Shown here one piece after another: positions 38,268 to 43,769 of a DNA stretch of 64,000 bases; positions within the stretch are counted from its first letter, which is position 1, and each line of letters begins with the position of its first letter. This DNA is from Escherichia coli (GTDB lineage Bacteria; Pseudomonadota; Gammaproteobacteria; Enterobacterales; Enterobacteriaceae). Made by a program: the position numbers and the translations under genes. Location: the NCBI RefSeq assembly GCF_044647545.1, contig NZ_CP172818.1; one strand, written 5' to 3'. A model generated the notes under the pieces. The model saw only the letters and a list, made by a program, of their open reading frames with translations, was not told where the DNA came from and made no database searches.

Positions 38268-39632
38268 TTGATTACACATATTAGCCCGCTTGGCTCCATG
38301 GATATGTTGTCGCAGCTGGAAGTGGATATGCTTAAACGCACCGCCAGCAGCGACCTCTATCAACTGTTTCGCAACTGTTCACTTGCCGTACTGAACTCCG
38401 GTAGTTTGACCGATAACAGCAAAGAATTGCTGTCTCGTTTTGAAAATTTCGATATTAACGTCCTGCGCCGTGAACGCGGCGTAAAGCTGGAACTGATTAA
38501 TCCCCCGGAAGAGGCTTTTGTCGATGGGCGAATTATTCGCGCTTTGCAGGCCAACTTGTTCGCGGTTCTGCGTGACATTCTCTTCGTTTACGGGCAAATC
38601 CATAACACCGTTCGTTTTCCCAATCTGAATCTCGACAACTCCGTCCACATCACTAACCTGGTCTTTTCCATCTTGCGTAACGCTCGCGCGCTGCATGTTG
38701 GTGAAGCGCCAAATATGGTGGTCTGCTGGGGCGGGCACTCAATTAACGAAAACGAGTATTTGTATGCCCGTCGCGTCGGGAATCAGCTGGGCCTGCGTGA
38801 GCTGAATATCTGCACCGGCTGTGGTCCGGGAGCGATGGAAGCGCCGATGAAAGGTGCTGCGGTCGGACACGCGCAGCAGCGTTACAAAGACAGTCGCTTT
38901 ATTGGTATGACAGAGCCGTCGATTATCGCCGCTGAACCGCCTAACCCGCTGGTCAACGAATTGATCATCATGCCAGATATCGAAAAACGTCTGGAAGCGT
39001 TTGTCCGTATCGCTCACGGTATCATTATCTTCCCTGGCGGTGTGGGTACAGCAGAAGAGTTGCTGTATTTGCTGGGAATTTTAATGAACCCGGCCAACAA
39101 AGATCAGGTTTTACCATTGATCCTCACCGGCCCGAAAGAGAGCGCCGACTACTTCCGCGTACTGGACGAGTTTGTCGTGCATACGCTGGGTGAAAACGCG
39201 CGCCGCCATTACCGCATCATCATTGATGACGCCGCTGAAGTCGCTCGTCAGATGAAAAAATCGATGCCGCTGGTGAAAGAAAATCGCCGCGACACAGGCG
39301 ATGCCTACAGCTTTAACTGGTCAATGCGCATTGCGCCAGATTTGCAAATGCCGTTTGAGCCGTCTCACGAGAATATGGCTAATCTGAAGCTTTACCCGGA
39401 TCAACCCGTTGAAGTGCTGGCTGCCGACCTGCGCCGTGCGTTCTCCGGTATTGTGGCGGGTAACGTAAAAGAAGTCGGTATTCGCGCCATTGAAGAGTTT
39501 GGTCCTTATAAAATCAACGGCGATAAAGAGATTATGCGTCGTATGGATGACCTGCTACAGGGTTTTGTTGCCCAGCATCGTATGAAGTTGCCAGGCTCAG
39601 CCTACATCCCTTGCTACGAAATCTGCACGTAA
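38268..39632 (+). CDS. ppnN: pyrimidine/purine nucleotide 5'-monophosphate nucleosidase (LOG-like)
   Basis: 454-aa ORF that starts at a TTG codon (ttg att aca cat...); LOG/TIGR00730-like core (PGGxGTxEE). Confidence 0.88.
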
Positions 39633-40187
39633 TCTCCCTCCCCCGGTGACGTTTGTTGCCGGGTTTTCTCGTTTTTGGTCACATACCCATCAATTTATTT
39701 CATTTGTTATATGAATGTTTCTTACCCCCCTCACGCGATAAATATCATTACAGTTAATATGTCATACAATTTATGTTGTAACGCAAACGTTTCCCTATTT
39801 TCATAAACCACATTTTATCGCTATGAAAAAGAAATTATCGCCATGATTAACTAAAAGTATTGATTTTTTCAGTTCAACCTACATATATTGCGCGCCCCGG
39901 AAGAAGTCAGATGTCGTTTAATGGGCAAATATTGCCCTTAAATTCTCTTTTACTTTTGATTTACAGAGTAAAGCGTTGGGATAATCTATCTTCCAAGTAG
40001 ATTATTGTATTTGGGATCAAGATCACTGATAGATACATAACTTGTGTGTATCTTTCCGCCCTCAAATTATTACGGCGGTAAATGATTAAGCCATCGCCGA
40101 TAGACAGATTTCATTTTTACGGTCAGGCACCTTCCCGGGCTGAACTGGCTAAAAGCTGAATTATTTGCATTCCTCCAGGAGAAATAG

Positions 40188-41477
40188 ATGGAAACGACTC
40201 AAACCAGCACGATTGCGTCGAAAGACTCTCGTAGTGCCTGGCGCAAGACAGACACCATGTGGATGCTGGGCCTTTACGGCACGGCAATCGGCGCGGGCGT
40301 GCTGTTCCTGCCAATCAACGCCGGTGTTGGCGGTATGATCCCGCTGATCATCATGGCTATCCTTGCGTTCCCGATGACATTTTTTGCTCACCGCGGCCTG
40401 ACTCGCTTCGTACTGTCTGGTAAAAACCCAGGCGAAGACATCACCGAGGTTGTAGAAGAACACTTTGGTATTGGCGCAGGTAAACTGATTACCCTGCTCT
40501 ACTTCTTCGCTATCTACCCGATCCTGCTGGTTTATAGCGTGGCAATCACCAATACAGTTGAAAGCTTCATGTCTCACCAGCTGGGTATGACACCACCGCC
40601 GCGTGCGATTCTGTCGCTGATCCTGATCGTGGGTATGATGACCATCGTTCGCTTCGGTGAGCAGATGATCGTTAAAGCGATGAGTATTCTGGTATTCCCG
40701 TTTGTTGGCGTACTGATGCTGCTGGCTCTGTACCTGATCCCGCAGTGGAACGGCGCAGCACTGGAAACGCTGTCTCTGGACACTGCATCTGCAACCGGAA
40801 ACGGTCTGTGGATGACCCTGTGGCTGGCAATTCCGGTAATGGTGTTCTCGTTCAACCACTCTCCGATCATCTCTTCTTTCGCCGTTGCGAAGCGTGAAGA
40901 GTACGGCGATATGGCAGAACAGAAATGCTCGAAGATCCTGGCATTCGCACACATCATGATGGTGCTGACCGTAATGTTCTTCGTATTCAGCTGCGTACTG
41001 AGCCTGACTCCGGCAGACCTGGCTGCGGCTAAAGAGCAGAACATCTCGATTCTGTCTTACCTGGCTAACCACTTTAACGCACCGGTTATCGCGTGGATGG
41101 CTCCGATTATCGCGATTATCGCTATCACCAAATCCTTCCTCGGCCACTACCTGGGCGCACGTGAAGGCTTCAACGGTATGGTGATTAAATCTCTGCGTGG
41201 TAAAGGTAAGTCTATCGAAATCAACAAGCTGAACCGTATCACTGCGCTGTTCATGCTGGTAACGACCTGGATTGTTGCCACCCTGAACCCGAGCATCCTG
41301 GGTATGATTGAAACCCTGGGCGGCCCAATCATCGCGATGATCCTGTTCCTGATGCCGATGTACGCAATTCAGAAAGTACCGGCAATGCGTAAGTACAGCG
41401 GTCACATCAGCAACGTATTCGTTGTCGTGATGGGTCTGATTGCAATCTCCGCAATCTTCTACTCTCTGTTCAGCTAA
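40188..41477 (+). CDS. sdaC: serine:H+ symporter
   Basis: 429-aa hydrophobic ORF beginning [31 protein letters not shown]. Confidence 0.95.
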
Positions 41478-41534: not shown

Positions 41535-42902
41535 ATGATTAGCGTATTCGATATTTTCAAAATCGGCATTGGCCCTTCCAGTTCTCATACCGTTGGACCA
41601 ATGAAAGCGGGTAAACAATTTACCGACGATCTGATTGCCCGTAACCTGCTTAAAGACGTGACCCGCGTGGTGGTTGACGTGTACGGCTCGCTCTCTCTGA
41701 CCGGTAAAGGCCACCACACAGATATCGCCATAATTATGGGTCTGGCGGGTAACCTGCCGGATACCGTGGATATCGATTCCATCCCTGGTTTTATTCAGGA
41801 TGTGAATACTCATGGTCGCCTGATGCTGGCAAACGGTCAGCATGAAGTGGAGTTCCCGGTTGATCAGTGCATGAACTTCCATGCCGACAACCTTTCTCTG
41901 CATGAAAACGGTATGCGCATTACCGCACTGGCGGGCGATAAAGTCGTTTACAGCCAGACTTACTACTCTATTGGCGGTGGCTTTATCGTTGATGAAGAGC
42001 ATTTTGGTCAGCAGGATAGCGCACCGGTTGAAGTTCCTTATCCGTACAGTTCAGCAGCCGATCTGCAAAAACATTGTCAGGAAACCGGGCTGTCACTCTC
42101 TGGCCTGATGATGAAAAACGAGCTGGCACTGCACAGCAAAGAAGAGCTGGAACAGCACCTGGCGAACGTCTGGGAAGTCATGCGTGGCGGTATTGAGCGC
42201 GGTATTTCCACCGAAGGCGTGTTGCCTGGCAAACTGCGCGTTCCACGCCGTGCTGCGGCACTACGCCGGATGCTGGTCAGCCAGGATAAAACCACCACTG
42301 ACCCGATGGCGGTTGTTGACTGGATCAACATGTTTGCACTGGCAGTGAACGAAGAGAATGCTGCTGGCGGTCGTGTGGTGACTGCGCCGACTAACGGTGC
42401 GTGCGGGATTATTCCGGCCGTGCTGGCGTACTACGACAAGTTTATCCGCGAAGTGAACGCTAACTCACTGGCTCGTTACCTGCTGGTAGCCAGCGCCATT
42501 GGTTCTCTTTATAAGATGAACGCGTCGATTTCTGGTGCCGAAGTCGGCTGCCAGGGTGAAGTCGGCGTGGCGTGCTCAATGGCGGCAGCTGGTCTGGCAG
42601 AACTGTTAGGCGCAAGCCCGGCGCAGGTATGCATCGCGGCGGAAATCGCCATGGAGCACAACCTCGGTCTGACGTGTGACCCGGTTGCCGGACAGGTCCA
42701 GGTACCGTGCATCGAGCGTAACGCCATTGCGGCAGTAAAAGCGGTGAACGCCGCGCGTATGGCGCTGCGCCGTACCAGCGAGCCGCGCGTCTGCCTCGAT
42801 AAAGTTATCGAGACCATGTACGAAACAGGTAAAGATATGAACGCCAAGTACCGCGAAACCTCTCGCGGCGGCCTGGCAATGAAGATCGTTGCCTGCGATT
42901 AA
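41535..42902 (+). CDS. sdaB: L-serine dehydratase 2
   Basis: 455-aa ORF beginning MISVFDIFKIGIGPSSSHTVGPM (Fe-S L-serine dehydratase). Confidence 0.95.
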   Translation: MISVFDIFKIGIGPSSSHTVGPMKAGKQFTDDLIARNLLKDVTRVVVDVYGSLSLTGKGHHTDIAIIMGLAGNLPDTVDIDSIPGFIQDVNTHGRLMLANGQHEVEFPVDQCMNFHADNLSLHENGMRITALAGDKVVYSQTYYSIGGGFIVDEEHFGQQDSAPVEVPYPYSSAADLQKHCQETGLSLSGLMMKNELALHSKEELEQHLANVWEVMRGGIERGISTEGVLPGKLRVPRRAAALRRMLVSQDKTTTDPMAVVDWINMFALAVNEENAAGGRVVTAPTNGACGIIPAVLAYYDKFIREVNANSLARYLLVASAIGSLYKMNASISGAEVGCQGEVGVACSMAAAGLAELLGASPAQVCIAAEIAMEHNLGLTCDPVAGQVQVPCIERNAIAAVKAVNAARMALRRTSEPRVCLDKVIETMYETGKDMNAKYRETSRGGLAMKIVACD

Positions 42903-43013
42903 TCGCTCTCCAGAGGCCTCTTTTTGCGAGGCCTCTTCCCGTTTTCTCAACCAGCCATAGCCTGTTCCGGCATCGAATGTTACCCTTATCGCCTGATCTT
43001 TAAGGGGGTTATC

Positions 43014-43769
43014 GTGGCTGTTCATTTGCTTATTGTCGATGCACTGAATCTTATTCGTCGCATTCATGCCGTTCAGGGTTCGCCCTGTGTCGAAACCTGC
43101 CAGCACGCGCTCGATCAGCTCATTATGCACAGCCAGCCAACCCACGCGGTCGCCGTTTTTGATGATGAAAACCGCAGTAGCGGCTGGCGTCATCAGCGTT
43201 TACCAGATTACAAAGCGGGTCGACCGCCAATGCCGGAAGAGTTGCACAACGAGATGCCTGCACTACGCGCCGCCTTTGAGCAACGCGGCGTCCCGTGCTG
43301 GTCCGCCAGCGGCAACGAAGCCGATGACTTAGCCGCCACGCTGGCGGTCAAAGTGACACAGGCCGGGCATCAGGCAACGATTGTTTCGACAGATAAAGGC
43401 TACTGTCAGTTACTTTCACCGACATTACGTATTCGTGATTACTTCCAGAAACGTTGGCTGGATGCACCATTTATTGATAAAGAATTTGGCGTTCAACCGC
43501 AGCAGTTACCCGATTACTGGGGACTTGCGGGGATCAGCAGTTCAAAGGTACCGGGTGTTGCGGGGATCGGACCAAAAAGCGCCACGCAGCTGCTGGTCGA
43601 GTTTAAGAGTCTGGAAGGGATATATGAGAATCTGGATGCGGTTGCCGAAAAGTGGCGCAAAAAATTAGAAACCCATAAAGAGATGGCGTTTCTGTGCCGC
43701 GATATTGCCCGCTTACAAACCGATTTGCATATCGACGGCAATTTACAGCAATTGCGGTTGGTACGGTAA
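43014..43769 (+). CDS. xni: flap endonuclease Xni (exonuclease IX)
   Basis: ORF track 42924-43769 (TTG start); the known 251-aa protein starts at the GTG at 43014 ([16 protein letters not shown]); 5'-3' exonuclease/FEN fold. Confidence 0.85.

Follow-up and report, generated by a model that had tools for sequence, protein, structure and literature searches.

Reddy and colleagues reportedly found in 1985 that replacing the UUG start codon of cya, the adenylate cyclase gene, by AUG or GUG raises its expression. Among the genes of Escherichia coli, about 14% start with GUG and about 3% with UUG, and in E. coli reporters both codons initiate translation at 10–100% of the AUG level (bioRxiv 10.1101/063800). 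Belinky, Rogozin and Koonin (2017) described weak selection on start codons together with compensatory strengthening of the Shine-Dalgarno (SD) sequence, AUG being the favoured and UUG the least favoured state in prokaryotes (PMC5622118). Here we analysed a stretch of 64,000 nucleotides of E. coli DNA (contig NZ_CP172818.1, assembly GCF_044647545.1; hereafter the window), in which the genes ppnN and xni begin with TTG and GTG, respectively. It is very probable that these are genuine, already annotated non-AUG starts, that the GTG of xni is evolutionarily labile, and that the TTG of ppnN is under purifying selection together with the ATT and ACA codons that follow it. The two genes are:

38268-39632, + strand: ppnN, an open reading frame (ORF) of 454 codons with TTG start at 38268-38270, encoding a nucleotide 5'-monophosphate nucleosidase of 454 amino acids (aa); RefSeq gives the same coordinates.
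43014-43769, + strand: xni, a RefSeq coding sequence with GTG start at 43014-43016, encoding the flap endonuclease Xni (ExoIX) of 251 aa.

Both start codons are the accepted reference annotation and therefore already known. The RefSeq/PGAP annotation of NZ_CP033850.1, a genome with 100% identity, and the curated record of K-12 MG1655 (NC_000913.3) place them at exactly TTG 38268 for ppnN and GTG 43014 for xni, and the sequence around the two starts does not differ between the window and MG1655. Strain FDAARGOS_497 matches the region at 100% identity, and 5425 of 5426 complete E. coli genomes contain it. A sequence-only reading of the window, made without database searches, had assigned coordinates to both starts, all of which were correct when checked against ORFs and annotation. 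Finding the starts matters little in itself, as the reference annotation of these two well-characterised genes already contains them. The occurrence of two non-ATG starts among four adjacent genes is within chance and unremarkable, the probability of at least two being approximately 0.14 when calculated from 14% GUG and 3% UUG. The residual curiosity, a modest one, is a UUG start that is frozen across a bacterial order against the general preference for AUG.

The position of the ppnN start is settled by the reading frame, the SD sequence, family models, structures and species comparison. An in-frame TGA at 38238-38240, nine codons upstream, shuts the frame, no ATG or GTG lies between this stop and the TTG, and TTG 38268 is the first possible start, giving a product that begins MITHISPLG. 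The sites that bear on the choice of start codon are:

38255-38261, + strand: SD sequence of ppnN, TAAGGAG, followed by a 6-nt spacer (38262-38267); its duplex with the 16S 3' end has an energy of -8.8 kcal/mol.
38298-38306, + strand: rejected ATGs of ppnN at codon 11 (38298) and codon 13 (38304), with no SD site.

PpnN is a full member of the NCBIfam equivalog NF038390 (742.7 bits against a cut-off of 450, residues 3-452 of 454), with model position 2 aligned to residue 3. All three Pfam domains match as well (PF14793, DUF4478; PF03641, Lysine_decarbox/LOG; PF11892, PpnN_C), and the Pfam and NCBIfam models begin at residues 3-4. The structures PDB 6gfl and 9hs1-3 carry the sequence of the window including MITHISPLG, 6gfl and 9hs1 being matched over residues 2-454. 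Our species comparison of ppnN comprised 80 species of Enterobacteriaceae plus Pectobacterium, Erwinia and Edaphovirga, in total 83 Enterobacterales, with three Vibrio species as outgroup. TAAGGAG was unchanged in all species aligned and followed by a spacer of 5-6 nt. In codons 4-10, the third positions vary synonymously among Enterobacteriaceae while the peptide is conserved, and these codons are therefore translated.

The sequence-only reading held that the ppnN frame makes sense only with the TTG. The TTG start is right, but the wording was slightly overstated, because the frame contains the ATGs at codons 11 and 13, which lack an SD sequence and would cut off conserved residues. Translation from one of these ATGs, with the TTG unused, would provide ppnN with the commonest start codon and would agree with five of 120 public cluster representatives that begin MDMLSQ or MLSQ. 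Yet it is very improbable in view of SD energies of only -1.5 (codon 11) and -3.1 kcal/mol (codon 13) versus -8.8 kcal/mol at the TTG, the retention of residues 2-10 as protein while their codons change synonymously, and the opening of the family models ahead of both ATGs. Moreover, codon 13 is Leu in three species, and the three Vibrio species have an ATG, preceded by GGAGG, exactly at the codon homologous to the TTG. Among the 120 cluster representatives, 108 begin at the TTG-equivalent position, five at Met11 or Met13, and five carry an upstream extension and read the TTG as Leu; automated gene callers thus mis-start ppnN in about 8% of these database entries, by truncation or by extension. 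A search among representative proteins returned only distant homologues (≤55% identity) with different N-termini, which were uninformative on the start codon. An upstream ORF of 63 aa (38080-38271), the TGA of which overlaps the TTG, was considered as a translationally coupled partner of ppnN and rejected because no start codon for it lies in the probable 5' untranslated region (UTR) and its frame is lost where the spacer is 5 nt.

In xni, the ORF extends upstream to a TTG at 42924 (281 aa), while the conserved protein starts at GTG 43014 (251 aa). The sequence-only reading had described the gene in the same way, and annotation, family models, structure and species comparison bear it out. The relevant features are:

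43001-43009, + strand: SD sequence of xni, TAAGGGGGT, 4 nt before the GTG; 9-bp anti-SD duplex with an energy of -11.9 kcal/mol.
42924-43013, + strand: untranslated extension of the xni ORF by 30 codons upstream, with indels and covered by no family model or structure.
42912-42936, + strand: terminator-like hairpin of sdaB with the arms AGAGGCCUC and GAGGCCUCU and the loop UUUUUGC, which contains the rejected TTG (42924-42926); a U-rich tract comes next.
42978-42986, + strand: extended -10-like element TGtTACCCT upstream of xni; about 65 species share the pattern TGnTAnnnT.

The purine-rich GGAG/GGGAG core of the xni SD sequence is kept across species, and the literature has long described xni as starting with GUG behind a suitable ribosomal binding site (PMC1919509). 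Xni is a full member of the NCBIfam equivalog NF007017 (449.5 bits against a cut-off of 261), positions 2-255 of which align to residues 32-280 of the long ORF. Both 5'-3' exonuclease domains, the N-terminal PF02739 and the C-terminal, SAM-fold PF01367, match, as does PDB 3zd8, a 251-aa Xni (E = 4.6e-170), and all of these models and the structure begin at the GTG-derived Met. Initiation at the upstream TTG, yielding a protein of 281 residues, is extremely improbable. Older K-12 records of xni presumably contained this longer form; the version of the K-12 protein record, NP_417278.4, shows that the record was revised, and in E. coli the ORF is indeed open to the TTG. However, the frame is open that far only in E. 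coli-like genomes and one other, where it is so by coincidence, whereas most other species have a stop 4-24 codons upstream of the GTG or ATG and no upstream start codon. The extension contains indels and lies outside every family model and structure, and the SD energy at TTG 42924 is -5.8 kcal/mol, with the pairing sequence inside a hairpin stem.

This hairpin (fold -16.6 kcal/mol, z = -3.1) directly follows the stop codon of sdaB and is probably the sdaCB terminator, although a simple terminator scan did not call it. Its stem covaries across species (GGCCUC, AGCCUC, UGCCUC and CGCCUC, each with a matching 3' arm), while the loop GUUUUGC is conserved, which argues against a start codon within the loop. 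The conserved extended -10-like element is located downstream of the TTG as well, and its variation is limited to the three uninformative middle bases (CCC to GGC or GGG). Judging from this element, transcription of xni likely starts downstream of TTG 42924, the predicted position being about 42993.

The spacing of the ribosome-binding sites, which the sequence-only reading had proposed as a check, supported both assignments. ppnN and xni have the features of canonical non-AUG initiation sites: SD energies of -8.8 and -11.9 kcal/mol, spacers of 6 and 4 nt, and in-frame alternatives that are all inferior, either lacking an SD sequence or lying in a hairpin. The steps of non-AUG initiation are generally established. 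In ppnN and xni, the strong SD pairing 4-6 nt upstream would position the 30S subunit at the start codon, and the initiator fMet-tRNA would read UUG or GUG with a mismatch at the first position. Since UUG and GUG are decoded by fMet-tRNA, PpnN and Xni would begin with Met, and initiation per mRNA is expected to be somewhat below that at AUG.

The two start codons differ in their evolution. In ppnN, the start is TTG in 80/80 Enterobacteriaceae and in 3/3 other Enterobacterales (83/83), and the invariance extends beyond the start codon:

38268-38278, + strand: invariant block TTG ATT ACA CA, reaching from the start codon to the second base of codon 4, identical in 83/83 Enterobacterales species.

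Pectobacterium, Erwinia and Edaphovirga have TTG ATT ACA CAT at this position despite an unrelated upstream sequence; in Vibrio, codons 1-3 read ATG ATT/ATC ATT/ACT, the ATG occupying the same codon as the TTG. The synonymous sites of ppnN are saturated across the species compared: of 106 four-fold sites within codons 1-330, just two never vary (1.9%), one of them being codon 3 ACA, and all four bases occur at 75. A TTG shared by all 83 species, when only 1.9% of the four-fold sites are invariant, therefore appears to be actively maintained, and the comparison indicates that TTG and the ATT ACA following it are held by purifying selection throughout the Enterobacterales. Among E. coli genomes, 5423 of 5426 contained a 47-mer with the TTG at its centre, the detection of which requires an exact 28-nt word spanning the start codon; for the equivalent 47-mer of xni the count was 5389 of 5426.

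Among 70 species, xni starts with GTG in 58 and with ATG in 12, always at the same codon. The Fitch minimum on a neighbour-joining tree was six changes, with ATG as the inferred root state (Vibrio, Erwinia, Pectobacterium and Edaphovirga), an origin of GTG at the base of the Enterobacteriaceae and at least five later reversions to ATG. On this tree, the GTG, the terminator-proximal promoter and the insertion of sdaCB appear together. The choice between GTG and ATG looks like the result of weak or no selection, without specific selection for GTG, so that the xni GTG may be regarded as a weakly selected, labile variant of an ancestral ATG, which seems to have arisen at the base of the group that carries sdaCB between ppnN and xni. 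The same genomes thus provide a natural experiment, in which the GTG of xni drifts freely while the TTG of ppnN is frozen.

The lability of xni also bears on the possibility that the non-ATG codons of both genes are effectively neutral accidents, in which the loss of ATG was tolerated because a strong SD sequence compensates for it. This explanation is slightly less probable than not. The six or more switches of xni between ATG and GTG, the very strong SD sequences of both genes and the weak start-codon selection with compensatory SD strengthening described by Belinky et al. (PMC5622118) all agree with it. A neutral first base of ppnN, on the other hand, should vary, which it does not in any of the 83 species despite the rarity of invariant four-fold sites.

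Selection on the ppnN start region does not necessarily concern the strength of the start codon. The TTG might instead be invariant as part of a nucleotide-level element, such as an RNA pairing or the binding site of a small RNA or protein, that spans CTTGATTACACA. The invariance of 11-12 nt including the four-fold site in codon 3 would be explained in this way, and an upstream partner is present in Enterobacteriaceae, where the conserved upstream block holds TGTAATCA(A) at 38224-38232, the exact reverse complement of (T)TGATTACA. The 5' UTR of ppnN is thereby flanked by an exact 9-nt inverted repeat, TGTAATCAA (38224-38232) and TTGATTACA (38268-38276), and a transcript that includes the upstream block, originating for example from queF read-through, is predicted to fold such that the start is buried (-30.2 kcal/mol, -60 to +40). 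We nevertheless consider such an element unlikely, since the complementary stretch upstream falls on the likely -10 element and is probably outside the ppnN transcript, the base facing the first T of the TTG differs among species, and Erwinia, Pectobacterium and Edaphovirga, all of which retain TTGATTACACAT, lack the complementary stretch. For the same reasons, namely the overlap of the upstream arm with the probable -10, its unconserved last base and its absence from these three genera, a start-sequestering helix of TGTAATCAA and TTGATTACA was largely rejected as the cause of the invariance. A match to Rfam was lacking as well: a scan of 37000-44200 gave no RNA family in the 5' region of ppnN or xni. 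The upstream region of ppnN contains two further features:

38196-38225, + strand: promoter-like elements upstream of ppnN, TTGTGA (38196-38201) and C-TATTGT (38219-38225), separated by an 18-nt spacer.
38233-38253, + strand: small stem-loop (GGGA..GACG-loop-CGUC..UCCC), ending 1-3 nt before the SD sequence of ppnN.

Both promoter-like blocks are conserved across Enterobacteriaceae and coincide with a chromatin immunoprecipitation sequencing (ChIP-seq) peak of sigma-S RNA polymerase just upstream of ygdH, as ppnN is called in K-12 (PMC4447067; coordinates converted by us from U00096.2); a simple promoter scan gave no call at this site. Transcription of ppnN is predicted to start at about 38232. 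A hairpin occupies the position of the small stem-loop in nearly all of 65 distinct sequences, with a mean folding free energy of -6.5 against -4.0 for shuffled sequences when each sequence was folded separately. Its arms change together, from GGGA:UCCC to AGGA:UCCU or GGCG:CGCC, and Erwinia, Edaphovirga and Pectobacterium have hairpins of unrelated sequence at the same place. RNAalifold did not recover the small hairpin from a plain MAFFT alignment of the ppnN 5' UTR, owing to misalignment of the 5' arm. The stem-loop may be a 5'-terminal stabilising hairpin. Further upstream, just after the queF stop, a covarying hairpin GCGTG...CACGC (38173-38189) is conserved across Enterobacteriaceae and precedes the conserved block GGTTGTGAAA. 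The hairpin, which has no clear U-tract, is possibly a terminator or attenuator of queF. With respect to control by CsrA/Rsm, the sole lead in the literature was an Rsm-bound 'YgdH-like' gene of Pseudomonas putida.

It is conceivable, but on balance quite improbable, that UUG-AUU-ACA, the upstream stem-loop and the consensus SD sequence of ppnN together form a dedicated translational control element of the Enterobacterales, in which UUG is required and not merely tolerated. Such an element would fix the synthesis of this (p)ppGpp-regulated nucleosidase or gate it conditionally, for instance when cells are in stationary phase or under stringent conditions.

The sequence-only reading had further suggested that both non-ATG codons are candidates for translational down-tuning. 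For ppnN, the maintenance of a weak codon in 83 of 83 species lends indirect support to this idea, whereas for xni, with a start codon that switched at least six times, it is unsupported; overall, down-tuning would be plausible. The most likely reason for the fixation of TTG-ATT-ACA in ppnN may be the setting of a particular, modest initiation rate for a nucleotide-degrading enzyme. Several points weigh against this interpretation. The strong SD sequences of both genes speak against a simple minimisation of expression and look more like compensation for the start codon than like minimised output. The invariance of ppnN runs past the start codon into ATT ACA CA and may reflect an overlapping element rather than start strength; seen from the sequence comparison, the conservation of the TTG would fit a selected expression set-point and an overlapping nucleotide-level element equally well. 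The 80 species of Enterobacteriaceae are related, so that counts among them are not independent, but the four-fold sites at which all four bases occur show that the tree is long. As regards direct evidence for the two start positions themselves, the supplements of the papers on tetracycline ribosome profiling (PMC4909307) and TRAINSPOTTER N-terminomics (PMC13245402) contained no entry for ygdH/ppnN or ygdG/xni. If ppnN needs its frozen UUG to function, the gene would clearly exemplify selection in favour of a sub-optimal start codon, contrary to the trend in prokaryotes.

The gene order in the window is queF-ppnN-sdaC-sdaB-xni-fucO, with the four genes from ppnN to xni on the same strand and fucO on the opposite strand. 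The two genes between ppnN and xni are:

40188-41477, same strand as ppnN: sdaC.
41535-42902, same strand as ppnN: sdaB.

In the comparison with Pectobacterium, Erwinia, Edaphovirga and the three Vibrio species, sdaC-sdaB was found between ppnN and xni in Enterobacteriaceae only; in the other genomes ppnN and xni adjoin in the order ppnN-xni-rlmM. A locus of the Enterobacteriaceae type, ppnN-sdaCB-xni, with a PpnN 93% identical to that of E. coli, was also present in CACSKA010000005.1, which is labelled 'Chryseobacterium sp. 18061' and is probably a mislabelled or contaminated assembly. Downstream of xni, the spacer to fucO (43770-43873) comprises 104 bp in the window and 54 bp in K-12 MG1655. 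It contains a weak, sub-threshold Rfam match to naRNA4 (43823-43858, minus strand, E = 0.48), which suggests an inserted REP-type repeat. The fucO ORF (43874-45025, minus strand) opens MMANRM... with two successive ATGs, of which RefSeq uses the second (382 aa).

The closest described relatives of the locus are ppnN (ygdH, b2795) and xni (ygdG/exo, b2798) of K-12, which have identical start regions and the same annotated start codons, located at K-12 coordinates 2926308 (ppnN) and 2931055 (xni). The window strain is essentially the same as K-12, except for a longer xni-fucO spacer and a few substitutions within Xni and the spacer between sdaB and xni. Both genes resemble the compensated sub-optimal starts described across prokaryotes in combining a non-AUG codon with a strong SD sequence, and the ATG/GTG lability of xni fits the weak selection reported there; ppnN, with a UUG fixed throughout an order, opposes the general trend (PMC5622118). 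A further parallel is cya, which also has a UUG start after a ribosome-binding site and, like ppnN, encodes a product that acts on nucleotide pools or signalling. In contrast to cya, ppnN has a near-consensus SD sequence and a conservation that reaches into codons 2-3.

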